Both the position numbers and the translations under genes were made by a program. The notes below the pieces were generated by a model, which saw only the letters and a program-made list of their open reading frames with translations, did not search any database and was not told the origin of the DNA. Shown here piece by piece: positions 7,082 to 58,306 of a DNA stretch of 64,000 bases. The DNA comes from an uncultured Candidatus Saccharibacteria bacterium (lineage in GTDB: Bacteria > Patescibacteriota > Minisyncoccia > Phycocordibacterales > JBBTRF01), in NCBI GenBank assembly GCA_964602975.1, contig CAZRTH010000001.1, forward strand, positions 70,303 to 134,302, read 5' to 3'. Each line of letters begins with the position of its first letter. Position 1 is the stretch's first letter.

Positions 7082-7092
7082 TTGTCGTGTTA

Positions 7093-7995
7093 TTATTTTT
7101 CCGCCACAATCACCGTATGTACCTTGAGTGGTTCGTATAATACTAACATTTTTTCCTTTTGAAATCCTGCCTTATGTAGAAGCTCAGCGAGCTCTTCGGC
7201 TCTACGATAAATCATTGGCCAACCGATAGCGTTGGTGACAAACTTCATTTCTTTGTTGTGCACGATATTCGCCGTAATGAGCGAGCCATTAGGTTTGAGA
7301 GATTCGTGAATTGAACGAAGTGTTTCAATTGTTTTTTCGTCATCAAAATAATCTAGTAGACCGACCATCTCTACTACGTTATATTCCTCTTTTGGCGACA
7401 CGGTTTTGAAAAAATTACCGACGGTATCGTTTAGCCATCGAAACTTCTGGTCATTACCGAAAAATTCCTTAACCATCGCCTGACTATACCTCAGGGCCTC
7501 AGGATTTTTATCTAAAAAAACGGCCAACACTGGAACGGTTCCGACTGCACCAGCATCTTTAAGAGATTCAATTACTGCTCGGGCCGATCCGGAAGCAATG
7601 CTGAGTATCGAAATTTCCTCCTTTTTGACAACTAACTCCAAAAACACCTCCTTGAGCTCGCGTTTAACCAAGCGAAGGCGATTTCTAACCCCACGGGAAT
7701 TATTGCTATGAAACCAGATATGATGGGACACTTTCTGGAATAGATTTTTTGACTTGTGTGGGTGACCATTCTGATAGAGAACTTCAAGTGCCTGATGAGT
7801 AGTCGCATTCTTAATTACCTCATCGGCTGCTTCATGACTTTTCTTTATAGCATTACGAAATTTGGGTGGAATGTTATTAAGCGCAGGAATAAGAAAGAGA
7901 TTCGCGAAGGACTTGAAGAGACTATTTTTCTCGTAACCTAAGGTGTTGTCTCGGTCGGTTTTTGTTGAGGTGATTCGGTGGTTATTTTGATTCAT
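7093..7995 (-). CDS. class I SAM-dependent methyltransferase
   Basis: 300 aa; Rossmann motif I ILSIASGSARAV, acidic motif II LLDYFDD, motif LKPNGSLI; 11 nt downstream of histidine kinase on same strand. Confidence 0.7.
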   Translation of the reverse strand: MNQNNHRITSTKTDRDNTLGYEKNSLFKSFANLFLIPALNNIPPKFRNAIKKSHEAADEVIKNATTHQALEVLYQNGHPHKSKNLFQKVSHHIWFHSNNSRGVRNRLRLVKRELKEVFLELVVKKEEISILSIASGSARAVIESLKDAGAVGTVPVLAVFLDKNPEALRYSQAMVKEFFGNDQKFRWLNDTVGNFFKTVSPKEEYNVVEMVGLLDYFDDEKTIETLRSIHESLKPNGSLITANIVHNKEMKFVTNAIGWPMIYRRAEELAELLHKAGFQKEKMLVLYEPLKVHTVIVAEK

Positions 7996-8115
7996 TGCGA
8001 TGTCTAGTATAACAAAATTAAGCCCAAATTACCTGCTCTACAAGGACCTCGGGTTACGTCCATTGTTTTTGTATCAACAGCAGCACTTTTTGCCTGCAGC
8101 ATTGAAGATCCGAGC

Positions 8116-15004: not shown

Positions 15005-15122
15005 TGCGTGTGAATTACGAGTAACATGTGAGGCGCGCCAAAATCCTCTTAAGAATACCTCACTCGACGCACTCTGACAACGAAAAACCGCTGTTGATAA
15101 CCTCTTGGTACTATAAGCGATA

Positions 15123-16301
15123 CTACAACCCCTCTTTTTTCAACTCTTCGATCGCCTTTTTGGCGGCGCGAGAAAGGTGCTTCGGCATGTCGACGGAAAT
15201 TTTCACAAAAAGATCTCCTCGGCGATTTTTGCTGCTGCCAACTTGCACGCCGCGACCCTTCACTCGCAACTGTTCACCGTGGTGAATGCCAGCAGGGATA
15301 CTGAGCTGGATCGTGCCGTCCAAAGTGGCAAGCGGTAGCTCACAACCAAGCAACGCATCGGAAAGTTTGATGGACAAAGTGGTATGCAAATCGTCTCCGT
15401 CGCGCTGGAAAAGCGGATGAGGAACGATGTGGATCTTCACATACAGGTCGCCAGCTGAGCCTGCGCCCGAGCCGCTCGAGGCGCCCGAGACAGCCTCGCC
15501 CTTCCCCGCCATTCGGAGCATTTCGCCGTCATTGATACCGGCAGGAATAGTAACCTCCAGCGTTTCTTGCTTTTCGTGCACGCCTGCACCGCGGCACACT
15601 CGACATTTTTCCTTCGGGATCGTGCCCTTTCCGACACAGGTCGGGCAGGTTTGGACCGTGTTGATGTTGCCAAGGAAGGATCGACGAGTCTCCTGCACTT
15701 TTCCTCGACCGTTACAAGTCGAGCACGTGTCGAGCTTGGTTCCCGGTTCGCCTCCGCTCCCTTTGCAATGATCACACTGGGCCGTTCGACTAAAACGGAG
15801 CTCTCGTTTAGTACCGAAAATGGCATCCTTGAATGGAATCTCGATGTCGATGGACATATCACGGCCTTTCTGCTTTCGTCCACGTGATCCGGCGCTGGAG
15901 CCACCTGAACCTCCTGAACCGCCACCAAAAATGTCTCCAAATAGATCGCTGATATCAAATTCTACATTTTGGCCACCGGTTCCACCGCCGCGAGCGAAGC
16001 CGCCAAAGCCTTGTCCACCGAAGCCCTGAGTGAACTGCGAAAAATCGAAGCCGTCAAAGCCGCCAGCTCCGCCGCCATTACCAGAGAAGCCCGGCTCAGC
16101 CGAGCCAAATCGGTCATACTGCGCGCGCTTCGTGTCGTCCGACAACACTGAATACGCCTCGTTCGCCTCTTTGAAACGTGCTTCGTTGCCACCTTTCTTG
16201 TCAGGATGATGCTCGTGCGCGAGCTTTCGGAACGCCTGTTTGATCTCGTCTTTCGTGGCGTTCTTCTCGACCCCGAGTGTTTTGTAGTAGTCTTTACTCA
16301 T
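15123..16301 (-). CDS. dnaJ: molecular chaperone DnaJ
   Basis: J-domain MSKDYYKTLGV...HPDK, G/F-rich linker, four CxxCxGxG zinc-finger repeats; start set at MSKDYY (ORF track extends 16 codons upstream to 16349). Confidence 0.95.
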   Translation of the reverse strand: MSKDYYKTLGVEKNATKDEIKQAFRKLAHEHHPDKKGGNEARFKEANEAYSVLSDDTKRAQYDRFGSAEPGFSGNGGGAGGFDGFDFSQFTQGFGGQGFGGFARGGGTGGQNVEFDISDLFGDIFGGGSGGSGGSSAGSRGRKQKGRDMSIDIEIPFKDAIFGTKRELRFSRTAQCDHCKGSGGEPGTKLDTCSTCNGRGKVQETRRSFLGNINTVQTCPTCVGKGTIPKEKCRVCRGAGVHEKQETLEVTIPAGINDGEMLRMAGKGEAVSGASSGSGAGSAGDLYVKIHIVPHPLFQRDGDDLHTTLSIKLSDALLGCELPLATLDGTIQLSIPAGIHHGEQLRVKGRGVQVGSSKNRRGDLFVKISVDMPKHLSRAAKKAIEELKKEGL

Positions 16302-26805: not shown

Positions 26806-28050
26806 CTAGCCTTTTTGTTCGATGATCTGGATGCGGTCGACGTCATCTGGGAAGGTAGTTCGCCAAAAAGGACGGACCACTGCCTTGATCGGGGTGACTT
26901 CGCTAAAACCCGCCATGATCCCCTTGAATGAATCGGTTTTTTGGGATACCAGCGCCTCTTTGATCTTTGCAGTGTCGTAGAGCCAAACGAGACTAGCGGT
27001 ACCAGAGACACTGAGCTTGATCGGATCGCGATCAAAGACGCCCACCGACATGTTCTGCGGAACGACTTCGAGACCTTCGACCGTTTTGAGGTCCACTGGT
27101 TTTTCGTCGTATCCATTGAGCGATTTTGTGGCGATCGCTTTGGCAAGCATCTTTCGATCCAACATGAGACCGGTGAGGATCACCTTTTGGGTCAGCACCA
27201 CTGTATCAGTGTCTTTGTTTTGATTCGGCAACTGCTCCACACTAAACAATGTTGCTCTATCGAAAAATGCATACCCCTCGGGTGTCTGCGCTCGAGCGGA
27301 GGCGATGAGGCGTGTTTTGAGGTCAGCGATCATTGTGTCGCGTGCAGTCTTTTCATCAGCCACCTTCACCACTCGTACCACACCTTTGCTGCCGCCGGTC
27401 ATCGCGATTTTCGAGCGTGCATAGATATTTTTGTACTTTTCCGGAGTTGATTTGAAACCTGGGATAGTGAAGTCGGTGAGGCCTATGTTGTATTCCGGAC
27501 CAGCGACGTCAGCGTAAACTGTCACTTCGATACTGCCCGGTACGGTTCCCTTCTTTCCTGGAATAGTGACTGGCTCAGAAATTCGATAGATGAGACCTTC
27601 AGGAGTCTGAAATCGGGTGTTGCGGATGAGTCGCTGGGTGGCGGTGGTGTCGTTGTTGTAGATGACGATCTGTCCGGAGGCCTTCTTTTCCTCCATTCGG
27701 GTGCCTTGAGCAATGACTTCTTTTTGGGATTGGTCGGACAAGGTCACGAGCTGGTATGTAATATCCGTGCCCTTGGCTGTTTTACCGGCGAGCAGCGTAA
27801 TATTGACAGGCGTCTTCTGAGTGAGCGGATCAAGAGTGATCGTGGCTCCGGTAAAGAGCGAGGACACAACGAAAAATAGGACGGCGAGGCAGGCGACTAC
27901 CAGCGTCCAAAGGATACTGCGGCGAATCTTCAGCTGAGGGTCGCTGCCGGCATCACCAGAGCGATCTGATCGACCGCGCATTGAAGCCGGAATGATCCGT
28001 ATACTACGGCGCTCCGAAGGGCGCACATCATTGATAATAGGCCTCGACAT
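26806..28050 (-). CDS. hypothetical bitopic membrane protein (414 aa; Arg-rich cytoplasmic N-terminus, one TM, large extracytoplasmic domain)
   Basis: TM ~res 46-66 (ILWTLVVACLAVLFFVVSSLF); no recognised motifs. Confidence 0.6.
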   Translation of the reverse strand: MSRPIINDVRPSERRSIRIIPASMRGRSDRSGDAGSDPQLKIRRSILWTLVVACLAVLFFVVSSLFTGATITLDPLTQKTPVNITLLAGKTAKGTDITYQLVTLSDQSQKEVIAQGTRMEEKKASGQIVIYNNDTTATQRLIRNTRFQTPEGLIYRISEPVTIPGKKGTVPGSIEVTVYADVAGPEYNIGLTDFTIPGFKSTPEKYKNIYARSKIAMTGGSKGVVRVVKVADEKTARDTMIADLKTRLIASARAQTPEGYAFFDRATLFSVEQLPNQNKDTDTVVLTQKVILTGLMLDRKMLAKAIATKSLNGYDEKPVDLKTVEGLEVVPQNMSVGVFDRDPIKLSVSGTASLVWLYDTAKIKEALVSQKTDSFKGIMAGFSEVTPIKAVVRPFWRTTFPDDVDRIQIIEQKG

Positions 28051-28079
28051 GCCGGTAGTATATCAAAGATTTCGCAATA

Positions 28080-29372
28080 CTATTGCTTTAGCTTGTTGAT
28101 AAACAGGACGGTGAGTAGCAAATTTACGGAGTGTACCTCAGGTGCATTCATTTGGTAGTGGGTGTTGAGGAAATTGCAATCGAGTGCCAACACCGAAAAA
28201 GGCGTGCCGTCAGAAGCTCCGTGTCCGAGCGAGTGATCGGAGATGAGTGTCGCAAAAAATGGCTGAAGGCGATCTTCAGCCGCCACCATCACAGTGCCAG
28301 GCACGAAGCATTCTTCAGAAAGGAGGGCGATCGAACCGGACACGGATGCTTGCCAATCTTTTGAAGCTTTTTTGAGTACTGGCTCAACTCGTTTTTTAGT
28401 CTCATCGGAAAGTGAATCAAGGCCGTGCATGCCAAGGACCGAGAGAGCTGTCTCTGGCGAGATCCCGGCTTCTTTTTCTAGCGCCCGTACAAAATGCTGG
28501 CTGCCCATCGGCACCGTGATCGTCTGCATCGCCACACCCTTCTTCACAATAGTGAAATCCGACACCTCGCCGTCCACGTCCACCAGCAAAAAATGCCGTG
28601 GAACCGACGCCACATCTCGAACTACGGAAAAAGTGACCATCGGGAAGGTGTGAAAATTGATAGTGGATCGACGGAAAATAGGCTGAACCACCTCTCGGAT
28701 CTGTGCGAGCAATTCCGAACCGACCACGCTGAAGTAGAGAGCGACTTCGAGCTCCTTCATTTTTTTGCCCTTTGGCCGCGAGGTTTCGTAGCCGTTCAGA
28801 GACAAAGAGACGACGTGACTTTCCACCAATTCCAGCTGCTCATGAAAACGCTCGCCGTATTCGCTGGCAGCAAAAGCATCGGCAAAAGCATTCGCTTCCT
28901 TTTTCACCAATTCATCAAGCGCCTTTTCAGAAAATAGTTCCGGAGTGTCCTTCACCTCACGGACGATCTTTGTCTGCGACAAAAACCACGGCGAAGCGAG
29001 CGTACAGTGGATCTCCCCGACCGCATCACTGCGCAATCCTCCCAGCGGAGTGAAGGTGAGATGTTGCAAACCTTCTTTTTCGAGGCGATCAACCACTTTT
29101 TTCAGCACTGTGATCGCAGCCGCTGCCATGTCCTTCCCAGGCTTGGCAGTACGATGTAGGGGAAATGTTTCTTCGCAAGAAAAGAGGATTTTCGGAACGC
29201 GGCATGTCGCGCCGGCTGTTGCCGTATTAGCCAATGTCCCCAATGCGTCGGACGCAGGCTTGGTCTCAGAACAATCGCGAATAGCGAGACCGCCAGACAC
29301 TCGCTCACCTTCAATGTGAAGAAGGATGACGGGTACTTTATCTGAATGCATGCCAAACGAGAGCCGGCTCAT
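28080..29372 (-). CDS. actin-fold (ASKHA) ATPase-like protein, FtsA/PilM-like (tentative)
   Basis: 430 aa; phosphate-1-like VILLHIEGERVSGGLAI near N-terminus and phosphate-2-like LLVDVDGEVSDFTIVKKG mid-protein; hydrophobic/basic C-terminal tail LLLTVLFINKLKQ. Confidence 0.5.
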   Translation of the reverse strand: MSRLSFGMHSDKVPVILLHIEGERVSGGLAIRDCSETKPASDALGTLANTATAGATCRVPKILFSCEETFPLHRTAKPGKDMAAAAITVLKKVVDRLEKEGLQHLTFTPLGGLRSDAVGEIHCTLASPWFLSQTKIVREVKDTPELFSEKALDELVKKEANAFADAFAASEYGERFHEQLELVESHVVSLSLNGYETSRPKGKKMKELEVALYFSVVGSELLAQIREVVQPIFRRSTINFHTFPMVTFSVVRDVASVPRHFLLVDVDGEVSDFTIVKKGVAMQTITVPMGSQHFVRALEKEAGISPETALSVLGMHGLDSLSDETKKRVEPVLKKASKDWQASVSGSIALLSEECFVPGTVMVAAEDRLQPFFATLISDHSLGHGASDGTPFSVLALDCNFLNTHYQMNAPEVHSVNLLLTVLFINKLKQ

Positions 29373-29411
29373 GGGAATATTGTATCACGAATCAGAGGCG
29401 AGCTAGCAAGA

Positions 29412-39296: not shown

Positions 39297-40577
39297 TTAA
39301 ATTGGAAGATTGCTTGGCGCTTCGGAACGTCGAGATTCGATACGATCCAAAGAAGGCGTGGTAGCGGTCGCTCCAGGAAGGTGGAAGATGGTGGCGAGCG
39401 ATTCGGCAGTCATGATAAAAGGCTTTGATTTCCAAAATCGGTATGGATAGGTGAAGAACGAGCGGTGCTTGTAGGCATCGAGAAACATTTTCTCGTAGTG
39501 AGTGCGACGCATTCGGGCGAAGTCCTGCCATGGGTAGTCGAAATCAGTAAAGAAACCGAGCCCAAGGTTGTTGATGTAATTGTAATTGCCGCCGTACTGA
39601 CGAAATGCGCCGATCAAACCCGGCACGCGCACCGGCAGCTTGTTCGCCTCTTTAGTGGCAATATAGAGACCGCGAATGCACGTATCAAACGGCAGCTGAT
39701 GCATATTTTTTTCGATGGCCGCAATGGCATCGGTCTGACCCTTAGTGTAATCCGGGAAACTCCTGGTCTTCTTGCCGTCTTTGTCCTTCACCTCCGGAGT
39801 CGCGGCGTCTTTAATATTTTTGATCTCACCTTCGCAGGCCTTGATCCAATCATCCTTCTTCTTCAAATGTCCTTCAGGTAAACCGAGCTTCTTGTGTGCC
39901 TGGATGAGGATCTGGAACCATGCCTGCTCCCCATTTTGAAGCGAGCCCATCCATTCAAGCAGCGAATTTATCGGATCTATCTTAAACTCCTCTTTTTCAG
40001 AAGCCTTGTCCAAGCCGAAATCCACATAACTCTTAATTTGATACATGTCTTGCGGCTTGCCCGTCTTCTTGTCCTTTCTCGAGTGCACGAAATATGTTCC
40101 CCACATCGGCATCTCTTCCGGATGAGTGAAGACCTGGTCGCTATAATCCGGAACCTCCTCGATCACGATGCCGGGATAATACGCGTACAGCTGTGCCTCG
40201 ATGAGATCCTTGTACTTCGTGTGCGTCCAGATATAGAAATGTACTTTGCCACCAATAGAGGCCATTTCCAACGAGAACCAATTTCGTATCTTGCCGTTGA
40301 CATAGGTGTCGATCCAACTTGCCGAGCCTTTTTGCCAAATAGATGCCAGAAAAATCTCCATCGCCAGCGGCGACTTGGTGACTTCCTTCGGCAATCGAAT
40401 CTCCAGTAGAGTGCCACCTTGTTTTTCCACAAATTCGCTACGGACGTAGTAGAACCAAGTGTGTGCGAATACGAATCCGCAAAAGAACGGCAGCCAGATC
40501 GGATAGAGGGAAAGAAAAGTAGAGACGCTTTGATAGATCAGGTTGCTAAAGTCGGCTGCGAGAACAGATTCCATCAC
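39297..40577 (-). CDS. hypothetical membrane protein (426 aa; 2 N-terminal TM helices, large soluble domain)
   Basis: no recognised motifs; 65 nt downstream of the sigma-r4/HARE-HTH gene on same strand. Confidence 0.55.
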   Translation of the reverse strand: MMESVLAADFSNLIYQSVSTFLSLYPIWLPFFCGFVFAHTWFYYVRSEFVEKQGGTLLEIRLPKEVTKSPLAMEIFLASIWQKGSASWIDTYVNGKIRNWFSLEMASIGGKVHFYIWTHTKYKDLIEAQLYAYYPGIVIEEVPDYSDQVFTHPEEMPMWGTYFVHSRKDKKTGKPQDMYQIKSYVDFGLDKASEKEEFKIDPINSLLEWMGSLQNGEQAWFQILIQAHKKLGLPEGHLKKKDDWIKACEGEIKNIKDAATPEVKDKDGKKTRSFPDYTKGQTDAIAAIEKNMHQLPFDTCIRGLYIATKEANKLPVRVPGLIGAFRQYGGNYNYINNLGLGFFTDFDYPWQDFARMRRTHYEKMFLDAYKHRSFFTYPYRFWKSKPFIMTAESLATIFHLPGATATTPSLDRIESRRSEAPSNLPI

Positions 40578-40642
40578 TCAATGATACAAAAAAAGACCGC
40601 CCCACTCAAGGGACAGTCTTTTTTGCTCGTTCAGAGTCTTGC

Positions 40643-41752
40643 TTACGCCTTCACTGCCGGAGAGAAGCTCACGACTACCGAATACTTCCCCTCCTTGTCT
40701 TTCTTGAAATGCTTCGGATTTTGAAGGTTGACCATGATAGTGTTCTCTTTCACATATCGCTCTTTGAGTACCTTCTCGACGATCTCGCTCTTGTTGAGCG
40801 GACCACTCTTTTCGATGATCTTTTTGATCACATCCTTCACAACGCCACTCATATAGCCCCATTCAGCGAGTGCGTAGAGACCGCGACCGACAAGCACGAA
40901 GCGTGAGTCCTTGATGAGCTCGTTGTGGCAAGTAGCGACATGAGCCTTGATGTTGAAGATCTTTTCGATGTTCTTTGCGACCTGAGTGAAGTGGATCGGC
41001 GAACCGTGCTTTCGGATAACGAGAAACGCGTAGTCTCGCATGCCCTTCGTCTTGATATTTGGAGAATCAGCCAAGCCCCACTCACCGAGCGGATTTTGCG
41101 CGATCTTCTTTGAAAGCTTAAGCCATCGGCGAACTACTTCTTCATTCTTGTATTTCTCAGACACATCCTTGAGATGCTCGAGGAACTTGTTGACCATCTC
41201 TGATTCAGAGAGCAGGTCGTCATTCGAGATATTCTTGTACAGCTTGTGGAGAGAGCCTTCTACCTGCTTTGCGAGCTCTTCATTTACATGCCATCGGTGA
41301 TTGAAATGTTCGTCTTCTTTCTGGCGCTTGAAGATGTCACCGAGAACAAGAAGAAAATTGAGATGGTTTTGGAGAGACGCGTCTTTTGAAATATGGGAAA
41401 GGAGGTCATCTTCTACCACAACCCCACCGAGAGAGTGGAGCACTTGCTCGAGGTCGGCAAAAGCGGTCTTTTCTTTTCCATACACATCAGACTTGCGGAT
41501 ATTGGCGATAGCGTAATTTTCGATCTGTCGGACTCGCTCTCGGGTGATGCCGTATTTCTTGCCGATCGCTTCGAGCGTAAGGCGCTTTGCTTCCTTGCCA
41601 AGACCATAACGAGCAACGATCACTTCCTGAGCGCGGTCAGGTAGCACGGCGATCAGCCGCTTGGTCACTTGTTTTGGTTTGAAGCTAATAGTGCTCATAT
41701 TTTTCTTTATTGGTGATTGAACCAAATTATCATTGATAGTCATAATAGTCAA
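40643..41752 (-). CDS. DNA-binding protein with N-terminal sigma-70 region-4-like HTH and C-terminal HARE-HTH-like domain
   Basis: 369 aa; res ~30-90 LIAVLPDRAQEVIVARYGLGKEAKRLTLEAIGKKYGITRERVRQIENYAIANIRK (sigma70 r4); res ~225-290 ...FLVIRKHGSPIHFTQVAKNIEK...SRFVLVGRGLYALAEWGY (HARE-HTH). Confidence 0.6.
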   Translation of the reverse strand: MTIMTINDNLVQSPIKKNMSTISFKPKQVTKRLIAVLPDRAQEVIVARYGLGKEAKRLTLEAIGKKYGITRERVRQIENYAIANIRKSDVYGKEKTAFADLEQVLHSLGGVVVEDDLLSHISKDASLQNHLNFLLVLGDIFKRQKEDEHFNHRWHVNEELAKQVEGSLHKLYKNISNDDLLSESEMVNKFLEHLKDVSEKYKNEEVVRRWLKLSKKIAQNPLGEWGLADSPNIKTKGMRDYAFLVIRKHGSPIHFTQVAKNIEKIFNIKAHVATCHNELIKDSRFVLVGRGLYALAEWGYMSGVVKDVIKKIIEKSGPLNKSEIVEKVLKERYVKENTIMVNLQNPKHFKKDKEGKYSVVVSFSPAVKA

Positions 41753-41794
41753 GCTTTGTCAAAAAGTCAAGCGGGAGGCGGGTTTTTGTGGTAT

Positions 41795-44764
41795 TTATCC
41801 CGCCACGACCACGCTCACCAACTTCCCTTTTACGACGATAACTTTCTTCACTGGCTTGCCTGCGATCCACTTCTGCACTTCCAGCAAGGCCAGGGCAAGC
41901 TTCTCCAAGTCAGCATCCGTCGCGTCGCTCGGCGCGGCAAATTCCGCTCGCACCTTGCCATTCACCTGCACGCCGATCTTACGGCTGGCTTCGCGGATTT
42001 TCGCCTCGTCGCAGACCGGCCAGGCGGATAGATGGATACTTGTTTTGTTGCCAAGCTGTGCCCAAAGTTCTTCTGACATATGAGGTGCAAAAGGTGCGAG
42101 CAGTTTCAAGAACGTTTCATATTGTTCCCGGGACACGCCGGCAGCTTGCTCGTCCAGCGCATTGAGCAAGATCATCATTGTGCTGATCGCGGTGTTGAAT
42201 TTCATTTCCGCGATGTCCGCCCCAACTTTTTTAACAGTCTTGTGTAGCAAGGACTCCAATTCACTAGTCGGGACAGCGACAGAAGTGGAAGCGGGGGCGG
42301 AAGTGGCGGTCACCTTCCCTGCCAGTTTCCACACGCGCTCCAAGAAGCGACGTGAGCCGATCATGCTGTTGGTGTTCCACGCGATCTGTTGATCGAACGG
42401 ACCCATGAACATTTCATATACACGCAAAGTGTCGGCACCATACGTAGCAATGATCTCGTCCGGATTCACGACATTCCCCCAACGCTTCGACATCTTTCTG
42501 CCATCTTCGGCCATGATGAGTCCGACATGCTGGAGCTTTTTAAATGGCTCGGTGGTTGAGACGACACGAATGTCGTAGAGGAATTTGTGCCAGAAGCGAG
42601 CGTAGATCAGGTGGCGTGTCGCGTGCTCTGCCCCACCGACATAGAGATCAACCGGTGCCCAATACTGCTCCGCTCGAGGATCGACAAGCGCCTTTTTGTT
42701 GCGCGCGTCCATGTATCGCAAGTAGTACCAGCTTGAACCCGCCCATTGCGGCATGGTGTTGGTCTCGCGACGAGACTTGCCACGACACTTCGGACACTTG
42801 GTGTTCACCCACTTTTCGATCGCAGCCAAAGGCGACTCACCAGTGCCAGTTGGCTCGTATGACTTCACCTTCGGGAGTTTCACTGGCAGGTCTTTTTCGG
42901 GAACAGGTACAACCCCGCACTTCTCGCAATGCACCACAGGGATCGGCTCGCCCCAATATCGCTGACGTGAGAACACCCAATCGCGGAGGCGGTAGGTTGT
43001 TTTCTTGGTGGCAAGATTCTTCGACTCGAGATAAGCAATGATCTCATTTCGCACGCCGCGCGCGTTTTTACCGGCAAATTCTTTCGGCTCGGACAGAATA
43101 CCTGTTTGAGCATCGGCAAAACATATTTCCTGTTTACGCACCTTTTCAGCAAGCGCTTCGTCCTTCGGATACAAAACTGTCTTGAGTGTGATCCCGTATT
43201 TCTTGGCGAAAGCAAAGTCGCGCGGGTCGTGCGCAGAACACTTCACGATACCGGTACCGTAGTCGGCCAAAGCAAAGCTCGCAACCCAGATCGGCAGATC
43301 GCCATTTCCAAGCGGATCGACGATGTAGCGGCCAGTAAAAATACCTTCAGATTCTTTTTCTTCAGCAAATCCCTGCTGCGCGCGCTTTGCAACCAAGCCA
43401 GCAGAGAAGTCGAGAACCTTCTGTTTGTCCTTTGTTCCCTCGAGCAAGGTTGACAGAAACGGATGATCCGGAGCGATGACGACAAATGTGTCGGCATAGC
43501 ACGCCTCGAAGTGTGCGGAGAATGTCTGGATGGTGAGGCTTGTATCTTTCACAGGTGCAGTGAAGATCATGCCGTCGCTCTTACCGATCCAATTCCGCTG
43601 AAGCTCTTTAATAGAGGTCGGCCAATCGAGCGCGGGCCGTCCAGCCTTCGCCTTGCCGATGAAAACATCCCAGAGATAATTCATGTCCGGACGATTCAAA
43701 AAACCGGCAACCTCCGCACGCGGCAGCCAGACCACTTCGTGAAGTGCCTTCTCCTTTTCATCAGCATCTTTCCACGCGTCATCCACGAGCTCGAGATACA
43801 CGCCGGTGAAATGCGCGAAGCGATTCACTTTTTTGATCGCCTGATAAAATTGGGAGTCGATCTGACCGAATTCGCGGACAAACCGGACATTCTGATAGCC
43901 AGTCTCCTCTTGCACTTCGCGCATCGCCGCCTCAGCGAGTTGTTCGCCTTTTTCTACGCCGCCAACTACAAGACCATGCCAATCATTACTCTTCCAACGC
44001 AGACACAAATACTTGTCTTCAGACCAATGCTTCACGACGCACACGACGGCATTTCGCTCCTCTAGCGGCAGGCCGGGGCGCACTGCGTCGGGGCCAGAAT
44101 CACGGATCATGAGGGGCTTTTCTGTCGCATCCAGATCAGCCAGCAGTCGCTCGGCATAATCAGTGATCTTCAAGACCCACTGACGGATGGGCTTTTTCTC
44201 CACGACGCTACCACAGCGTTCGCACTTGCCATCCTCGAGATCCTCGTTGGCAAGACCGGTCTTGCAGGAAGGACACCAGTTGATCGGCTCGTGCGATTGA
44301 TACGCTAGACCTTTCTCGAGCAATTTCAGGAAGATCCATTGCGTCCACTTGTAGTAGGCGGGGTCGGTGGTGTTGATCTCTCGCGACCTGTCATAGTCGA
44401 AGCCGAACATCTCGAGCTGCTCCTTGTAGCGCTGAACGTTCTTCTCCACAGCGATCGCCGGATTGGTCTTCATCTTGATCGCGTAGTTTTCTGCTGGAAG
44501 GCCGAAAGCGTCAAAACCCATCGGGTGCAGCACCGAATGACCTTGCATGCGCTTCATACGCGACACAACATCGGTAGCGATGTAGCCCTTCGGGTGACCG
44601 ACATGGAGACCTTCACCGGATGGATACGGGAACATGTCGAGGACGTAGAAGGCGTCTTTCTTCGCATCCTCCTTGGTCGCGTAGATCTTTTTCTTCGCCC
44701 ACTGCTTCTGCCACTTGTTCTCTATCTTCGAGTGATCGTATGCGGGCAGTTTCTGCGATTTCAT
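41795..44764 (-). CDS. leuS: leucine--tRNA ligase with an inserted Nudix hydrolase domain
   Basis: 989 aa; HIGH-type motif PYPSGEGLHVGHP, ZN-1 CPSCKTG..CERCG, CP1 editing domain, KMSKS region; Nudix box GGVEKGEQLAEAAMREVQEETGY at res ~268-290. Confidence 0.95.
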   Translation of the reverse strand: MKSQKLPAYDHSKIENKWQKQWAKKKIYATKEDAKKDAFYVLDMFPYPSGEGLHVGHPKGYIATDVVSRMKRMQGHSVLHPMGFDAFGLPAENYAIKMKTNPAIAVEKNVQRYKEQLEMFGFDYDRSREINTTDPAYYKWTQWIFLKLLEKGLAYQSHEPINWCPSCKTGLANEDLEDGKCERCGSVVEKKPIRQWVLKITDYAERLLADLDATEKPLMIRDSGPDAVRPGLPLEERNAVVCVVKHWSEDKYLCLRWKSNDWHGLVVGGVEKGEQLAEAAMREVQEETGYQNVRFVREFGQIDSQFYQAIKKVNRFAHFTGVYLELVDDAWKDADEKEKALHEVVWLPRAEVAGFLNRPDMNYLWDVFIGKAKAGRPALDWPTSIKELQRNWIGKSDGMIFTAPVKDTSLTIQTFSAHFEACYADTFVVIAPDHPFLSTLLEGTKDKQKVLDFSAGLVAKRAQQGFAEEKESEGIFTGRYIVDPLGNGDLPIWVASFALADYGTGIVKCSAHDPRDFAFAKKYGITLKTVLYPKDEALAEKVRKQEICFADAQTGILSEPKEFAGKNARGVRNEIIAYLESKNLATKKTTYRLRDWVFSRQRYWGEPIPVVHCEKCGVVPVPEKDLPVKLPKVKSYEPTGTGESPLAAIEKWVNTKCPKCRGKSRRETNTMPQWAGSSWYYLRYMDARNKKALVDPRAEQYWAPVDLYVGGAEHATRHLIYARFWHKFLYDIRVVSTTEPFKKLQHVGLIMAEDGRKMSKRWGNVVNPDEIIATYGADTLRVYEMFMGPFDQQIAWNTNSMIGSRRFLERVWKLAGKVTATSAPASTSVAVPTSELESLLHKTVKKVGADIAEMKFNTAISTMMILLNALDEQAAGVSREQYETFLKLLAPFAPHMSEELWAQLGNKTSIHLSAWPVCDEAKIREASRKIGVQVNGKVRAEFAAPSDATDADLEKLALALLEVQKWIAGKPVKKVIVVKGKLVSVVVAG

Positions 44765-44906: not shown

Positions 44907-45509
44907 ATGAAAATTTTCAGCGATCATCCGAACGCGCTCGAATTGGTTGAGTATTTCGAGCGGTGGCTCGCAGTCGTCCCTCCCCATTGGAGAGAGATCC
45001 TTGGAAAGGTCCACATCCACCTCACGTCAATGCGACTCGATGAAATGCCGGTGACACGCGAAGCTGCCACTGCAGAACAAGCTGCTCTTGCCGAGCAAAT
45101 GAAAAAGGCTGGCACGTGGAAGCCTGATATGGACGTCATGTGCTGCCGTGCGAGCAAGAGAGGAAGCGATGGACATCACGTGATCTATCAGATGATTCAG
45201 GAAGAAGATGTAAACGAAGATACGCTGAGCCATATCGCTACTGAAGTATTGACCTGCATCGGCAAAGTAGCGTTCTCCATCGTCAATACTCGAGCGAAAG
45301 TGCTTGTCGAGCAAGACCCTCAGGTCACTCGGTGGCACGGTTCTCTGAGTGAAACGGCTCGACGTGATCTCTTTGGAGTGTTCTTTATGCTCGTCTGTTT
45401 TCCGAAGCTACCAACCGGACGGCATCACCGAAAGAGAATGAGGTTGGTTCACCGTGTGGATCAAATCGTGCGCGAGACTGTTGAGTGCGAACTGTCCTTT
45501 GCGGAGTAA
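44907..45509 (+). CDS. hypothetical protein (200 aa)
   Basis: ORF with TTGACC-15-TATACT promoter-like hexamers ~44827-44853 upstream; no motifs. Confidence 0.45.
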   Translation: MKIFSDHPNALELVEYFERWLAVVPPHWREILGKVHIHLTSMRLDEMPVTREAATAEQAALAEQMKKAGTWKPDMDVMCCRASKRGSDGHHVIYQMIQEEDVNEDTLSHIATEVLTCIGKVAFSIVNTRAKVLVEQDPQVTRWHGSLSETARRDLFGVFFMLVCFPKLPTGRHHRKRMRLVHRVDQIVRETVECELSFAE

Positions 45510-46047: not shown

Positions 46048-47157
46048 TTAACCAACCTTAAATTCCAAAACGTCACCATCCTGCACGATGTATTCCTTCC
46101 CTTCTGTACGGAGCAGGCCTTTCTCTCGAGCGGCAGCAAAAGATCCTGCTTCAAGCAATGTGTCCCAATGGATCACCTCGGCCTTCACGAATCGGTCTTT
46201 GAAGTCGTTGTGGATAGCGGTGCCAGCGATAGGCGCGGTCGAACCCTTGCGGATCGTCCAAGCCCGAGTCTCTTTTTCGCCAGTGGTGAAGTAGGTCATG
46301 AGACCAAGCAAGTCGTAGCTCGATCGGATGAGATTGTCGATGCCGTCATCTTTGCCGCCTAGCTCTTTGCGGAACATTTCCTTCTCTTCACCCTTCATAT
46401 CTTTGAGCTCGTGCTCCACGCCGGCATCTACGATCACGTACTGCGCTTTTTGTTCAGTGAGGTACGCAAGTAGCGCGGCAAAGCGAGGCTCCTTTCCGCC
46501 ATCGATCTCATCGAGATTTTTTCCGCCCGCTTTTTTATTCAAACAATAGAGGATCGGCTTCATGGTGAGCAGGTGCATTCCTTTGGCAAAAGGGAGTTCT
46601 TCGTCTTTGAACGCCAAAGAGTTCGCGAGCTTGCCCTGATCGAGCGTTGCTTTGATCCGCTCGAGCACCGCCGCTTCAGCTACCGCAGCCTTGTCGCCGC
46701 GCTTCACATCACGCACTAGGTTCACCAGACGCTTCTTCACGGTCTCCTGATCGGCCATGATGAGCTCGAGATTGATCGTCTCGATGTCGCCCTTCGGATC
46801 TACCTTGCCGTGCACGTGGATCACTTTGTCATCTTCGAAAATACGCACCACTTCGAGGATGGCATCGGTCTCGCGAATGTTGGTGAGAAACTTGTTGCCC
46901 AAGCCCTCACCCTCGGAGGCACCTTTCACAAGCCCCGCGATATCGACAAACTCCACGATCGCCGGAACAGTCTTCTGAGTCTTAGAAAAATCCGACAGCT
47001 TCCAGAGACGCTCGTCAGGAACGGCCACCACACCCACTGAAGGATCAATAGTGCAGAAAGGATAATTTTCAGCCGGTACCGACTTCAGTGTCAGCGCGTT
47101 GAACAACGTCGATTTGCCGACATTCGGGAGGCCTACGATGCCTATAGAAAGAGACAT
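46048..47157 (-). CDS. ychF: ribosome-binding ATPase YchF (Obg-family GTPase fold)
   Basis: 369 aa; [24 protein letters not shown]4 motif, C-terminal TGS domain ...[12 protein letters not shown]. Confidence 0.92.
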
Positions 47158-47163
47158 CGGCTA

Positions 47164-47192
47164 TTTATATCAGGATTTTGTCAAAATACCAA
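47164..47192 (-). promoter_or_regulatory. promoter TTGGTA-17-TATAAA ending 6 nt before ychF ATG (leaderless arrangement)
   Basis: minus strand: TTGGTAttttgacaaaatcctgaTATAAAtagccgATG. Confidence 0.4.
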
Positions 47193-47213
47193 GGAAACGT
47201 TCGCTTAATAATA

Positions 47214-47242
47214 TTGACATTTTCGCACAAACGGTGTATAGT
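47214..47242 (+). promoter_or_regulatory. sigma70 promoter TTGACA-17-TATAGT
   Basis: ~50 nt upstream of ATG 47292, which is preceded by GAAAGG. Confidence 0.55.
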
Positions 47243-47291
47243 AGTGTCTGATTTTCGCCGCTTGACAACACTTTATACGAAAGGCTTCCCC

Positions 47292-48521
47292 ATGCTCACA
47301 CTCGCACTTAGTCACACCTTGCAGCAGAGTCAGTCGCTCAGCATCGAACTCGGTTTGTCGCAGAGCCTCGCCCAAACAGTCGGCCTGACTCGCCCACCAG
47401 GCTCACCCGGAAATCCGGAAGAGATCCTCGCACGAATCCTAGCAAACATCGTTGCGTCGATCACAAATGCCCGCATACAAGAAGCGGTCAGCGGATTGAC
47501 GAGCGATCCAAGTTTCGTCAAAGGTCTGCTCTTGCACAAAGAGGAATTGGCTGTCTTGAGAGAGGGTCGGATCGAACAGTTCGCGGCAGATCATCTCTAC
47601 ACAAATAGCACGCGTGACGGAAAGTTCGTCCACGCTGTCGGATCTGATGGCAAACCCGTGCTCGACCCGCCCCAGACGACCGGCATCCTCTTCAGAAGAG
47701 CACTACTCGAACCGGAAAATTTCGGCCAAGAAGTGGAGCTTCTCGCTGAACGATTGCGACAGATCGCCTCTCGCGTTCATTCGGTGGCTGAACTCAAGGA
47801 AATGACGGCAGCGAAGAACATTGCTGCTCAGGTCCGGCCACTCTTCGAAAACTTCTGTGCGATCCTAGAGCTCGTCTTCGCCAAGAAGACTGAAGACATG
47901 ATGACCGTGGCTCAATTTCTACGAGATGCCGTCATCTTAGAGAAGCTTGACCTCATCATGTCTGAACGGCTCCTGAAACGCTTCCTCAAGCGCTTTCGAC
48001 GAGTCGGTCCGCGAGCGGTTGCCCGAGATTTCGAGGAATCAATGCTCAACACCGTGGCTGAGTATACACTCATCAGTATGGGTGTGATCTCTCCGGACAT
48101 CTTTGCCCTGCAAAGGAGTGACACTGACTCGGAAGCATACGACGGTGCGTGCACAGAGTTGAGCAAGGTCGGAATCGACCTAAGCCAGGTGCTCGCCCAC
48201 TACCAGATCCAACCTGCAGGTAGGATCTTCTGGCACCGCTACTCCACCACCAAGGTGAAGCCGAGTGATCGTTCCGAGCAAATCGTCCGCGATTTCATCA
48301 TTCGGACGGTCCGCCAAGACCGCCAGGCAGTCTTGGCGGCAGTCAACCACACCGAACTCTTCGCAGGCTTCAAGGCCGCGAAAGCCAAGTATGGGGTTGA
48401 CGAAGAATTCGATGACGAAATCATCGGACAACTCACCGATCAACTCGGCAGTGACAGTTTCCAGCTCCAATACCTCGCGTTGCTGAGAAGGTGGTATCCT
48501 CAGCTCGAGAAACTCCTGTGA
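47292..48521 (+). CDS. hypothetical protein (~410 aa from MLTLALSH; ORF track starts at TTG 47178)
   Basis: ATG with GAAAGG 7 nt upstream and strong promoter; no recognised motifs. Confidence 0.5.
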   Translation: MLTLALSHTLQQSQSLSIELGLSQSLAQTVGLTRPPGSPGNPEEILARILANIVASITNARIQEAVSGLTSDPSFVKGLLLHKEELAVLREGRIEQFAADHLYTNSTRDGKFVHAVGSDGKPVLDPPQTTGILFRRALLEPENFGQEVELLAERLRQIASRVHSVAELKEMTAAKNIAAQVRPLFENFCAILELVFAKKTEDMMTVAQFLRDAVILEKLDLIMSERLLKRFLKRFRRVGPRAVARDFEESMLNTVAEYTLISMGVISPDIFALQRSDTDSEAYDGACTELSKVGIDLSQVLAHYQIQPAGRIFWHRYSTTKVKPSDRSEQIVRDFIIRTVRQDRQAVLAAVNHTELFAGFKAAKAKYGVDEEFDDEIIGQLTDQLGSDSFQLQYLALLRRWYPQLEKLL

Positions 48522-55998: not shown

Positions 55999-56021
55999 AA
56001 AAATCCGCTCGTGCGGATTTT
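55999..56021 (-). terminator. rho-independent terminator after tRNA-Ala (AAAATCCGC-acga-GCGGATTTTT)
   Basis: 9-bp stem then U-run on minus strand, directly 3' of the tRNA. Confidence 0.6.
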
Positions 56022-56025
56022 GTTG

Positions 56026-56098
56026 TGGACCCTACAGGACTCGAACCTGCCACCCCCTCATTGCAAATGAGGTGCTCTACCAGATGAGCTAAGGGCCC
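56026..56098 (-). tRNA. tRNA-Ala (anticodon UGC)
   Basis: hand-folded cloverleaf: GGGCCCT/AGGGTCC acceptor with G3:U70 Ala identity pair, D-loop ATCTGGTA, anticodon loop TTTGCAA, T-loop TTCGAGT, discriminator A; CCA not encoded. Confidence 0.88.
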
Positions 56099-56218
56099 GT
56101 CTTTCCGACCGTCGCATCATACCAAAAAGAACCTAAAAAAACAACGGGGTAGACACTAAAGTAATATTCACAGAAATCATGTACAAAAAGCTAATAAAGT
56201 TGTATGGTGGAGACATAA

Positions 56219-57187
56219 ATGAAATCAATTAATAAAGTTTTTTTCAGCATTATTAGTTTATCAATATTTGCACTTCTGCTTTCTCTTACAAACACGGCAG
56301 ACGCTTATGTCTCTGTTAAAGGTTATTATAAAAGTAACGGTACTTACGTTTCTCCACACGTTCGAAGTAACCCAAATGGACTAAAGTCTGATAACTACAG
56401 TTACACTCCGAGTCAAGGCGCATACAATAAGACATACGGAACAAGAGGTGCGGAATGGGATACCCCGACCTATATAACAGATCCAAGTTACTACCAAGGA
56501 AAGTCTTTATACGAGTCTGGAAATAGTAATTCTGGAACCTACTATCAATACCCGACGACTCCGACTTGCCCGATAAATTCGTACTACGATGGTGTATCTT
56601 CTTGTAAGTGTAATTATGGTTATATTGTAAGTGGAGGTAGTTGTGTTAATGCTAATAATTATTGCTCGAGTCAGCTTGGGGTAATGTCCCAATACAACAG
56701 TTTATCCAATAAGTGTGAGTGTATGAGTGGCTACGAGCAAAGTGGTTCAACTTGTGTTTATAAGATTCGAGACTACTCAAATTCCTCTGGATATTCGAGT
56801 ATGCCCTCTTACAACTGCCCATTAAATTCGCACACATCACCAACTGAGCCAACGAAGTGTGATTGTGATTCCGGATATCAAGTTAATTCAAGCAAGACGG
56901 CCTGCGTTCTCCTAAACAATAATGTGAATAATCAAGCTTGCATCAACTCATATGGCGCCCATAGTAATTGGGATGGTACAAAAACGCCTACAGGTTTAAT
57001 AAATTGCGTCTGTCAGGCAGGGTATACTTGGAATAATTCAAAGAGTGCCTGCGTTGCAATCATACCTCAACCACAATATCAAAATGACGAACTCATTGGA
57101 AAAAATTATTACTTAAATAATCGTACCTGTGTAGGTCTTTCTGATAATCAATACTCATACTGTATTAGCTACGCATACAACCACTAA
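56219..57187 (+). CDS. secreted cysteine-repeat protein (322 aa) encoded in AT-rich DNA
   Basis: signal peptide MKSINKVFFSIISLSIFALLLSLTNTADA; four C-x-C-x2-G-Y-x(4-7)-C-V modules; canonical SD GGTGGAG 6 nt upstream of ATG, unlike neighbouring genes; N/S/Y-rich. Confidence 0.6.
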   Translation: MKSINKVFFSIISLSIFALLLSLTNTADAYVSVKGYYKSNGTYVSPHVRSNPNGLKSDNYSYTPSQGAYNKTYGTRGAEWDTPTYITDPSYYQGKSLYESGNSNSGTYYQYPTTPTCPINSYYDGVSSCKCNYGYIVSGGSCVNANNYCSSQLGVMSQYNSLSNKCECMSGYEQSGSTCVYKIRDYSNSSGYSSMPSYNCPLNSHTSPTEPTKCDCDSGYQVNSSKTACVLLNNNVNNQACINSYGAHSNWDGTKTPTGLINCVCQAGYTWNNSKSACVAIIPQPQYQNDELIGKNYYLNNRTCVGLSDNQYSYCISYAYNH

Positions 57188-57191
57188 CCCA

Positions 57192-57223
57192 CTCCCCCTC
57201 GCCAATTCTACCAAACGTTCAAC
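57192..57223. repeat. 32-bp direct repeat copy A: fragment duplicating the 3' end of ddl
   Basis: CTCCCCCTCGCCAATTCTACCAAACGTTCAAC vs 58389-58420 CTCCCCCTCGCCAATTCCACCAAATGCTCAAC (29/32). Confidence 0.8.
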
Positions 57224-57491
57224 TGCAATAAAATCCGAAAGCGAATAATACTTCGTTCCAAGCGAACAATCTACCTTGCGTGCAATACTCTGGATCATTA
57301 TGATTTTAGCGGAGTAAAATTGCCTAGGAAAATCTCCTCCTTATCTTCTCTTCTGTCGCTTGAAAAACTCAACCTGCCTCAAACGCTTCACTGCAGCCTC
57401 CCGACTTTTATACGGTCCGCCTAGATTTTTTCCCGTCTTTGATAAAACAAGATACCCATTTTTGCGTTTTCTGATCATGTGCTTGATCTAT

Positions 57492-57896
57492 TTATTTTCT
57501 GCGTCGCGCTCCCTGCGCCTTGCGAATATTCCGCTTTCGAGCCCGCTTCTGAGCTCTCGTTGGCTTCTCGCTCTCGGGAACATTTCTCCGTGGCCTAGCT
57601 GCAAATACATCGCCCTTTCTGTGTACGATCGGACCTCGGACCTGTTTCAATACCGTCTTGGCCTTGGGATCATCGATCACCAATTTCCCCCGAGTATCAA
57701 CATGTGCTTTCTTTTTTTCCACGAGCCAAGTGACCGTATCCCAGCTACCGCTCCTACGCTTCCCCGCAATACGCTCGAGCCCGTCGCGCTCTCCGACATC
57801 TTGCGTCCTAAAAGTCACGAATTCGCTCTTCGGCCTGATCTCGATCCGATAGAATCGCCCTTTGCCACCGGTACCCGGTTTCTTTCTTGTTGCCAT
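57492..57896 (-). CDS. hypothetical small basic protein (134 aa), co-oriented 5 nt downstream of hsp20
   Basis: K/R-rich termini, central GSWDTVTWLVEKKKAHVDTRGKLVIDD; no known motif. Confidence 0.5.
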   Translation of the reverse strand: MATRKKPGTGGKGRFYRIEIRPKSEFVTFRTQDVGERDGLERIAGKRRSGSWDTVTWLVEKKKAHVDTRGKLVIDDPKAKTVLKQVRGPIVHRKGDVFAARPRRNVPESEKPTRAQKRARKRNIRKAQGARRRK

Positions 57897-57901
57897 AGGT
57901 A

Positions 57902-58306
57902 TTATTTTTTAGTTTTAACCTTACCTCTTTTCTCACCTTCGACCTTCGGGAGAGTGATAGTGAGCACGCCATCTTTGCAAGTCGCCTTCACCTGGTCTTC
58001 TTTGACACGATCCGGTAGTGTGAATTCCCGTCGAAATTCGCCGAAGAATCGCTCATATCGATACGGCCTCGTGCTTTTGTCGGTCTCCACTTCTCGCTCG
58101 GACTTGCCGCTGATCGTCATCCAATTGTCCTGAACATCAATATTGATATCTTCAGGGTTGATGCCCGGCACATTGGCTACAACTTTTACTTCCGTATCGG
58201 TTTCGCTCACGTCGACTCGCGGAACATCGTCTTCAAATTCATCCAAAAAGATCTCCCGCTCTGGTTTGACGATTGCTCTGATGCTTTTTTTCTTTTCTTT
58301 TTTCAT
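57902..58306 (-). CDS. Hsp20/alpha-crystallin family small heat-shock protein
   Basis: 134 aa; alpha-crystallin domain ...FRREFTLPDRVKEDQVKATCKDGVLTITLPK... Confidence 0.85.
   Translation of the reverse strand: MKKEKKKSIRAIVKPEREIFLDEFEDDVPRVDVSETDTEVKVVANVPGINPEDINIDVQDNWMTISGKSEREVETDKSTRPYRYERFFGEFRREFTLPDRVKEDQVKATCKDGVLTITLPKVEGEKRGKVKTKK

Follow-up and report, generated by a model that had tools for sequence, protein, structure and literature searches.

Relaxosome accessory proteins serve the coupling proteins of conjugation systems and autoregulate their operons (TrwA-TrwB, TraM-TraD), and FtsK/SpoIIIE (gamma-KOPS) and Streptomyces TraB (TraB-clt) are membrane-anchored hexameric motors that are guided by winged-helix reading of short DNA repeats. 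The prototype of the bacterial HARE-HTH (helix-turn-helix) proteins is RpoE of Firmicutes. A survey from 2025 examined 2,918 Patescibacteria genomes and counted 5,713 VirD4-like homologues of coupling proteins, about two per genome, of which only 148 lie near virB4; relaxases are almost absent, TrsD proteins resembling the N-terminus of VirB4 are abundant, exaptation was suggested, and a sigma-like partner is not mentioned (PMC12102498). Here we describe a locus within a 64,000-nt stretch of contig CAZRTH010000001.1 (assembly GCA_964602975.1; hereafter the window), which encodes a 351-aa protein composed of a sigma-70 region-4 (sigma-4) domain and four winged helices (WH), referred to as SigHARE, and directly downstream a membrane protein assigned to the DUF8128 family. 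We tentatively propose, with somewhat less than even confidence, that SigHARE reads TTGACA-type hexamers, regulates its own gene and serves as DNA-binding subunit or adaptor in a chromosomal ATPase module that resembles coupling proteins and has no relaxase.

A preliminary description of this DNA had called an N-terminal sigma-70 region 4 and a HARE-HTH, had stated that sigma regions 2 and 3 are absent, and had concluded that the protein is not a sigma factor; profile searches with E-values bear out these points. In a Pfam hmmscan, Sigma70_r4 matches residues 34-87 of the open reading frame (ORF) with 54.8 bits (E 6.5e-15, cut-off 24.1) and HARE-HTH matches residues 238-298 with 33.9 bits (E 4.2e-8, cut-off 25.9), and the latter model also recognizes all five diverse homologs that were scanned, four of them above the cut-off. 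Models of sigma region 2 or 3 give no match in Pfam or NCBIfam, and the RpoD, RpoS and SigA models of NCBIfam match SigHARE only through their last ~60 positions. SigHARE is a predicted cytoplasmic, basic nucleic-acid-binding protein and not a sigma factor. The NCBIfam delta-subunit model TIGR04567 scores 28.2 bits, which is under its cut-off of 42 bits. The sigma-4 domain superposes on solved sigma-4 structures (1ku3, 3n97, 4g6d) with a root-mean-square deviation of 0.9-1.5 A at 34-45% identity (Foldseek), and the phmmer matches of SigHARE among PDB sequences are confined to region 4 of group-1 sigmas. Where primary sigmas have their region-4.2 recognition helix (TRERIRQIE in solved SigA/RpoD chains), SigHARE has TRERVRQIE, a motif that does not vary among 42 close homologs and hardly varies among 30-139 diverse ones.

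The ~130 aa between the two domains had been described as helical, which turned out to be wrong, as AlphaFold2 (AF2) and hhalign reveal a winged helix followed by a degenerate one. The AF2 model (mean predicted local distance difference test score, pLDDT, 77.8) contains the sigma-4 bundle at residues 1-75, a confident winged helix at 77-137, a helical segment at 140-201, the HARE-HTH at 215-276 and a further winged helix at 286-341. The first winged helix (WH1) is modelled as H77-89/E93-95/H96-103/H107-119/E124-126/E135-137 with a pLDDT of ~90 and the last one (WH4) as H286-298/H303-313/H318-325/E331-333/E338-341, and unit 2 is drawn as helices only. Weak whole-chain Foldseek matches in the PDB are to tandem-winged-helix proteins, namely the C-terminus of SelB, Pol III Rpc82 and UFL1. 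Profile-profile comparisons by hhalign, made with sub-alignments from 139 diverse members of the family, connect the HARE unit with the C-terminal winged helix (probability 95.8%, E 7e-9, 61 columns), unit 2 with the C-terminal winged helix (93.5%) and the HARE unit (79%), and WH1 with unit 2 (85%). This kinship of the linker, WH1, the HARE unit and the C-terminus leads to an architecture of a sigma-4 domain followed by four tandem HARE-type winged helices, in which the C-terminal unit can be regarded as a diverged duplicate of the HARE-HTH. The sigma-4, HARE and WH4 units are basic (isoelectric point, pI, ~10), and WH1 and WH2 are acidic or neutral. The best conserved blocks across the family are TLExIGxxYGITRERVRQIE, HNELIKDxRFVLVGRGxYALxEWGY and NTILLNLQN, the HARE motif (the second of these) being the most conserved block in the 139 diverse representatives.

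The best 120 database matches of SigHARE share 72-92% identity and are 318-370 aa long (nearly all 340-355 aa), and 119 of them carry both Pfam domains. A HMMER search of 1.84 billion cluster representatives yielded, at E<=1e-30, 604 clusters (50% identity); of the 150 that were listed, almost all are full length (~320-390 aa), with ~12 shorter fragments and one 659-aa fusion, and the gene is present in at least 598 species when one genome is taken per GTDB species. The named members (Taylor-, Niyogi-, Campbell-, Nomura-, Zambryski-, Taga- and Portnoybacteria) belong to the Parcubacteria group of Patescibacteria. Mean column identity over the 42 close homologs is 80%, and within the clade of the window SigHARE (63-92% identity) equals or exceeds YchF and LeuRS in conservation; between deep lineages the mean pairwise identity is 36% for SigHARE, 30% for DUF8128 and 52% for the ATPase introduced below. 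Homologs are named 'sigma factor-like helix-turn-helix DNA-binding protein' at NCBI (Candidatus Taylorbacteria, Paceibacterota, Patescibacteria group) and 'RNA polymerase delta subunit' at JGI, and both labels are misleading. No published description of the SigHARE/DUF8128 family was found, and the HARE-HTH paper of Aravind & Iyer 2012 may mention the architecture. Neither the winged-helix part of SigHARE (tblastn of plasmid and phage collections) nor DUF8128 (plasmids) has a homolog on the mobile elements searched. The 659-aa fusion (P0289, SecF-SigHARE) was rejected as a real architecture; it is most likely a gene-call read-through or artefact, because SecD-SecF lies directly upstream of SigHARE in Portnoybacteria (L164/L165).

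SigHARE is tightly linked to DUF8128. Of 80 species-level loci, whose SigHARE shares 63-75% identity with the query, 76 have a DUF8128 gene immediately 3' of SigHARE in the same orientation, and the gene order there is YchF-LeuRS-SigHARE-DUF8128-YceG-MnmA. DUF8128 likewise follows SigHARE in all 14 testable distant metagenome loci (24-72% identity), nine of which have lost LeuRS, YceG and MnmA. The pair is kept where other synteny is gone, which argues that the linkage is specifically maintained, and these counts across genomes uphold the pairing with a membrane protein proposed in the preliminary description. The 65-nt distance that it gave for the 426-aa ORF in the window is correct. The distance between the two genes varies from a 4-nt overlap up to several hundred nt, 16 of 92 spacers being shorter than 30 nt or overlapping. 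The spacer of the window contains a terminator-like hairpin of -29 kcal/mol (z -4.36, none of 200 shuffles equal; RNA fold), and a comparable hairpin with a T-run occurs in 31 of 76 orthologous spacers of at least 30 nt (~40%). Rfam has no match near the locus. The hairpin overlaps a weak promoter-like site (TTGAGT-17-TATCAT, 40609-40581), and the arrangement suggests attenuation or a separate expression of DUF8128.

The downstream protein had been described as having two transmembrane (TM) segments and no detectable homology. Hydropathy reveals one clear TM peak, and a second segment is only suggested by the AF2 model (pLDDT 89.3, predicted TM-score, pTM, 0.87), which consists of an N-terminal helical hairpin (residues 2-53) and an alpha/beta domain. 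The claim regarding homology has to be abandoned, given 1,994 homologs at E<=1e-3, an assignment to DUF8128 (PF26449) by way of these homologs and a fold like that of the VirB4 N-terminus. PF26449 is precomputed in 119 of the best 120 homologs (identity up to 84%), the neighbours of SigHARE in L161, L164, L167 and L168 are labelled DUF8128, and our own Pfam scan was empty because the copy searched did not include the PF26449 model. All nine best fold matches in the PDB are R388 TrwK/VirB4 (best E 1.3e-4, probability 1.0; Foldseek).

In sister lineages the pair is joined by an ATPase related to type IV coupling proteins. In L087 and L092 the two are fused: DUF8128 makes up the N-terminal half of proteins of 880-929 aa, whose C-terminal half is a coupling-protein-like ATPase matching TrwB_AAD_bind, DUF87/HerA, TraG-D_C and T4SS-DNA_transf. 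A separate ATPase gene lies downstream of DUF8128 in L082, L089, L090, L093, L094, L161 (Niyogibacteria), L164/165 (Portnoybacteria), L167 (Tagabacteria) and L168, the last of which also has the LeuRS-NUDIX gene upstream, as in the window. In most loci the ATPase is located directly 3' of DUF8128, the exceptions being L082, with a gap of ~0.5 kb, and L161, in which a small ORF intervenes; this ORF (5734-5997) encodes a GIY-YIG nuclease. TrwB_AAD_bind, T4SS-DNA_transf and TraG-D_C match the ATPase above the Pfam cut-offs and score better than VirB4-type models, which give only a weak AAA_10 match below the cut-off, and TrwB is its nearest solved relative among PDB sequences. The ATPase family is very large, Walker A is intact in 10 of 10 members examined, and a C-terminal CxxC-x17-CxxC treble-clef zinc finger is often present. 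When encoded separately, the ATPases start at the P-loop (Walker A at residues 35-75) and have no N-terminal transmembrane domain of their own, and their membrane anchor appears to be supplied by DUF8128, either in trans or by fusion. No relaxase or channel gene of a type IV secretion system (T4SS) was found in the annotated neighbourhoods of the ATPase loci.

A further gene, coding for a ~490-aa protein with Lamin-tail and PKD domains (LTD/PKD), is next after the ATPase in seven of nine ATPase-centred loci and in six of seven distinct arrangements (L161, L162/L163, L166, L167, L168, L169), irrespective of whether the SigHARE-DUF8128 pair is adjacent, and glycosyltransferases often follow. The LTD/PKD protein may be a fourth, surface-exposed component. 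By gene order, SigHARE appears to be the first gene of a module that is conserved across Parcubacteria, with DUF8128 as the second and, in many lineages, the ATPase as the third. SigHARE is an uncharacterised family built from known parts, residing in a three- or four-gene module.

The promoter of SigHARE provides a candidate target for its sigma-4 domain. The upstream sequence in the window reads TTGACTttTTGACAaagcTTGACT, and it harbours three direct TTGAC boxes, the proximal of which (TTGACT) is followed after 17 nt by TG-n-TAATTT (41732-41724). TTGAC-N3-8-TTGAC occurs only twice in the 64-kb window, both times at this promoter. Two or three direct boxes are found upstream of SigHARE in 30 of 96 orthologous loci, with a spacing that peaks at 9-12 nt (mode 11) and an upstream box that is usually a perfect TTGACA, and most tandem TTGAC matches in the orthologous loci fall upstream of SigHARE. 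At intergenic promoter-like sites a second box accompanies 27 of 59 sites upstream of SigHARE vs 2 of 104 elsewhere (Fisher p 2e-12), a comparison drawn from the same related loci, which are not phylogenetically independent and in which sites may count twice. At least one TTGAC is present within 120 nt upstream in 87 of 92 loci. The boxes also bear on the gene start: the minus-strand ORF spanning 40643-41752 in the ORF list of the window is a real reading frame, as the preliminary description had proposed, and its TTG start at 41752 is not supported. This TTG is part of a TTGAC promoter box, and the start is placed at ATG 41698 because the homologs (41 were aligned) begin at M19 of the ORF ('MSTISFKPKQ').

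Taken together, SigHARE probably reads or delivers DNA for a conjugation-type ATPase machine. Under the proposal made at the outset, the sigma-4 domain, with the 4.2 recognition helix of primary sigmas, would read TTGACA-type hexamers, and would bring about autoregulation by binding the additional TTGAC(A) boxes that precede the -35 element of its own promoter by one helical turn. The basic winged helices would add contacts to DNA (or RNA), and the acidic middle units, or another surface, might dock SigHARE to the DUF8128/ATPase complex at the membrane. DUF8128 and the ATPase would form a membrane-anchored split relative of VirB4/VirD4, and SigHARE would be its substrate-recognition or adaptor subunit, similarly to relaxosome accessory proteins or the winged-helix gamma domain of FtsK. 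The domain architecture, the size of the family, the linkage and fusion of the genes and the TTGAC boxes are observed, and the DNA specificity, the autoregulation and the physical coupling to the ATPase are inferred. A bolder version, speculative and in our estimate unlikely, is that Parcubacteria possess a core chromosomal, relaxase-free nucleic-acid translocation machine, made up of a split VirB4/VirD4-like ATPase consisting of DUF8128 and a soluble motor, the LTD/PKD surface protein and a sigma-4-derived TTGACA reader that selects or loads DNA, or tethers promoter DNA or RNA polymerase (RNAP) to the motor.

Several observations weigh against the adaptor proposal. The association of SigHARE, DUF8128 and the ATPase is known from genomic linkage alone, and no ATPase homolog is encoded in the 64-kb window, nor does one lie less than 6 kb away in 80 close relatives; the best 120 ATPase homologs all come from other Parcubacteria lineages and none from the clade of the window. 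Furthermore, the ATPase is placed apart from the pair in at least three lineages (L162/L163, L166, L169), which suggests, together with the lack of a nearby ATPase in the window and its close relatives, that SigHARE and DUF8128 may act without it. The likeness of DUF8128 to the VirB4 N-terminal domain (NTD) is at the fold level only (TMq 0.35), and its profile finds no sequence-level match among PDB sequences. An intrinsic terminator parts SigHARE from DUF8128 here and in ~40% of spacers, and extra TTGAC boxes are present in only about a third of the loci. Since a TATTAT follows the distal box of the window after 17 nt (promoter scan), the tandem boxes could also be overlapping tandem promoters. 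In addition, the confidence of the AF2 model is lowest in the HARE unit (pLDDT ~60). As separate observations, the unlinked ATPase genes of L162/L163, L166 and L169 are preceded by a DUF4015 (glycoside-hydrolase-like) gene, with a nucleotidyltransferase/HepT toxin-antitoxin pair separating the two in L166.

Two other functions have to be weighed against the adaptor proposal. SigHARE might be an RNAP accessory factor, its sigma-4 domain sitting on the beta-flap tip helix and its HARE-HTH on beta' as in the Firmicute delta subunit, and might compete with or assist region 4 of sigma-A at -35 elements genome-wide. The ~35-45% identity and ~1 A superposition with region 4 of primary sigmas, the sub-threshold TIGR04567 match, the JGI label and a conservation not below that of YchF and LeuRS, as expected for the partner of a conserved machine, are all compatible with this. 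We nevertheless consider it unlikely, given that the delta score (28.2 bits) stays under the 42-bit cut-off and that the C-terminus (pI 9.8) is no acidic tail; moreover, there is no transcription-related gene in the neighbourhood nor any positive genomic evidence, the gene to which SigHARE is invariably linked encodes a membrane protein whose ancestry traces to T4SS ATPases, and the tandem TTGAC boxes are specific to SigHARE's own promoter instead of being general. This same specificity of the boxes would suit an operon-specific autoregulatory transcription factor, which would control through TTGAC(A) operators at its own promoter how strongly DUF8128 (and a linked ATPase, where there is one) is expressed, and would have no physical role in the membrane complex; the position of SigHARE as first gene of the cluster with its own sigma-70-type promoter in nearly all loci (87 of 92 with TTGAC), and a recognition helix that matches the -35 reader of sigma, point the same way. 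Yet five domains and 351 aa are much for a simple repressor, two thirds of the loci have no extra boxes, a terminator often uncouples the two genes, the pair persists where the ATPase is unlinked, and the high conservation within the clade is atypical of a local regulator, which leaves this explanation improbable.

Far less probable is a split sigma factor, in which a primary sigma without functional region 4 would be complemented in trans by SigHARE, which would then recognize the -35 element and bind the flap. Found almost throughout its class, the family retains the complete group-1 region 4.1/4.2 signature with an invariant recognition helix, but it is linked to a membrane ATPase module and not to transcription genes, there is no sign of a resident sigma-A devoid of region 4, and Patescibacteria genomes are routinely annotated with complete RpoD genes. 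The sole sigma-A-like gene encountered (L039 1-942, minus strand, ~5 kb upstream of SigHARE) has a normal region 2, and the fetched locus stops before region 4. If SigHARE were a pseudogene left over from a disrupted rpoD, or an ORF arisen by chance, this would account for the presence of region 4 alone, and the preliminary description had named a fragment of a disrupted rpoD as a finding that would refute its own view. This has been ruled out as practically negligible by the size and conservation of the family, which counts at least 598 species and ~604 clusters (50% identity) with full-length orthologs of 340-355 aa, and whose 42 close homologs show 80% mean column identity. Moreover, 43 nt separate the end of LeuRS from the distal promoter-like hexamer, no remnants of sigma regions 2 or 3 are present there, and the 64-kb window contains neither rpoD nor a match to a region 2 regular expression. 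Two further candidates were rejected: an MzaA-like defence system, as the only PADLOC match is to the sigma region-4 end of MzaA and the 426-aa DUF8128 protein gives none, and a phage or plasmid origin, as the winged helices have no match in plasmid or phage collections and PHROGs yields only sigma region-4 matches. A fold search of BFVD added nothing.

Patescibacteria account for a large share of the diversity of bacteria, and functions are still unassigned for most genes conserved among them. In Parcubacteria, an orphan ATPase gains two fixed partners, DUF8128 and SigHARE, and usually a third, the LTD/PKD protein, and for SigHARE both a DNA motif and a site of autoregulation can be put forward as candidates. 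The vague notion of an exapted ATPase can thereby be turned into hypotheses on binding sites, interactions and substrate that are concrete and testable. SigHARE also illustrates clearly how region 4 of sigma can be reused in a protein that is not a sigma factor. If the translocation machine were real, it would represent a new use of a sigma domain and would offer a role for thousands of orphan coupling-protein homologues of Patescibacteria, for example in DNA uptake from or export to a host, or in chromosome handling.

The coordinates of the features are collected in the table below.

Table. Features of the SigHARE-DUF8128 locus, in window positions
Feature	Position	Strand	Details and basis
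SigHARE coding sequence (sigma-4 domain and four winged helices)	40643..41698	-	351 aa; start ATG 41698
Promoter with three direct TTGAC boxes (starts 41770, 41762, 41752)	41724..41770	-	sequence, promoter scan
Sigma-70 region-4 HTH	41492..41653	-	residues 16-69 of 351 aa; PF04545
Winged-helix unit 1	41279..41473	-	residues 76-140; acidic, pI 5.4; AF2, hhalign
Winged-helix unit 2, degenerate	41063..41278	-	residues 141-212; hhalign
HARE-HTH winged helix, unit 3	40859..41041	-	residues 220-280; pI 9.8; PF05066
C-terminal winged helix, unit 4	40664..40849	-	residues 284-345; pI 9.8; hhalign, AF2
Intrinsic-terminator-like hairpin	40588..40623	-	14-bp stem, U7; in the 65-nt SigHARE-DUF8128 spacer
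DUF8128 protein	39297..40577	-	426 aa; membrane anchor at residues ~2-53 and VirB4-N-terminal-domain-like alpha/beta domain

Several other features of the window were recorded. LeuRS (989 aa, 41795-44764, minus strand) contains a NUDIX hydrolase insert at residues ~240-352 (PF00293, 50.8 bits), which is present in about half of 80 related Parcubacteria loci and also in L168, sometimes in two to three copies (L015, L022). A giant ORF of 2,018 aa (9086-15139, minus strand), the sole Pfam signal of which is a SprB repeat, probably encodes a surface or adhesin-like protein. Two patches of low GC content (6001-8000 and 56001-58000; 0.42-0.43 vs ~0.52) stand out, the first of which includes a histidine kinase with a 7TM receptor (5429-7171, minus strand), and the second adjoins the only tRNA gene of the window (56026-56098) and could be an integrated element. 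Several ORFs of 200-460 aa, at 26809-29384 (minus strand), 47148-48518 (plus strand) and 44907-45509 (plus strand), are without a match in Pfam (E<=1e-4), which is typical for the uncharacterised gene content of the lineage.

With regard to known systems, SigHARE shares with region 4 of primary sigmas (RpoD/SigA) the fold and the signature L..R...V...R[FY]GL...TLE.IG..[FY]G[IV]TRER[IV]RQIE, but it lacks regions 1.2, 2 and 3, carries region 4 at the N-terminus, fused to four winged helices, and has YAIANIRK in place of KALRKLRH, the stretch after the recognition helix that makes activator contacts in sigma-70. Unlike sigma factors, it cannot direct -10 recognition or melting. The Firmicute delta subunit (RpoE) resembles SigHARE in possessing a HARE-HTH winged helix (PF05066, above the cut-off in SigHARE), which is, however, internal and duplicated in SigHARE instead of N-terminal; moreover, the C-terminal 68 residues of SigHARE form a folded, basic winged helix in place of an acidic disordered tail, and the sigma-4 domain is absent from delta.

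DUF8128 finds its best fold matches in the N-terminal half of TrwK/VirB4, which makes it comparable to the VirB4 NTD and to TrsD-like proteins, and it has an N-terminal membrane hairpin and can be fused to an ATPase, as in VirB3-VirB4. It differs from VirB4 in having no sequence-level similarity, in not being located near virB4, and in that its partner ATPase matches coupling-protein rather than CagE_TrbE_VirB models. Compared with conjugative coupling systems, the module has no relaxase, oriT, VirB4 channel or T4SS gene nearby, is chromosomal and housekeeping in hundreds of species with no plasmid homologs, has its membrane anchor in a separate protein with a VirB4-NTD-like domain, and includes an ATPase with a zinc finger; relaxosome accessory proteins are of the ribbon-helix-helix type, whereas SigHARE consists of sigma-4 and winged-helix domains. 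What it has in common with TrwB/VirD4/TraD and their partners TrwA/TraM/PcfF is a small sequence-specific DNA binder, here a predicted one, encoded together with a membrane-anchored ATPase of the FtsK/HerA superfamily. In comparison with FtsK and TraB, SigHARE is a separate polypeptide, its repeats are seen only at its own promoter, and no link to division or segregation genes has been shown, but winged-helix units, direct hexamer repeats and an ATPase of the same superfamily are features that the SigHARE system shares with these motors.

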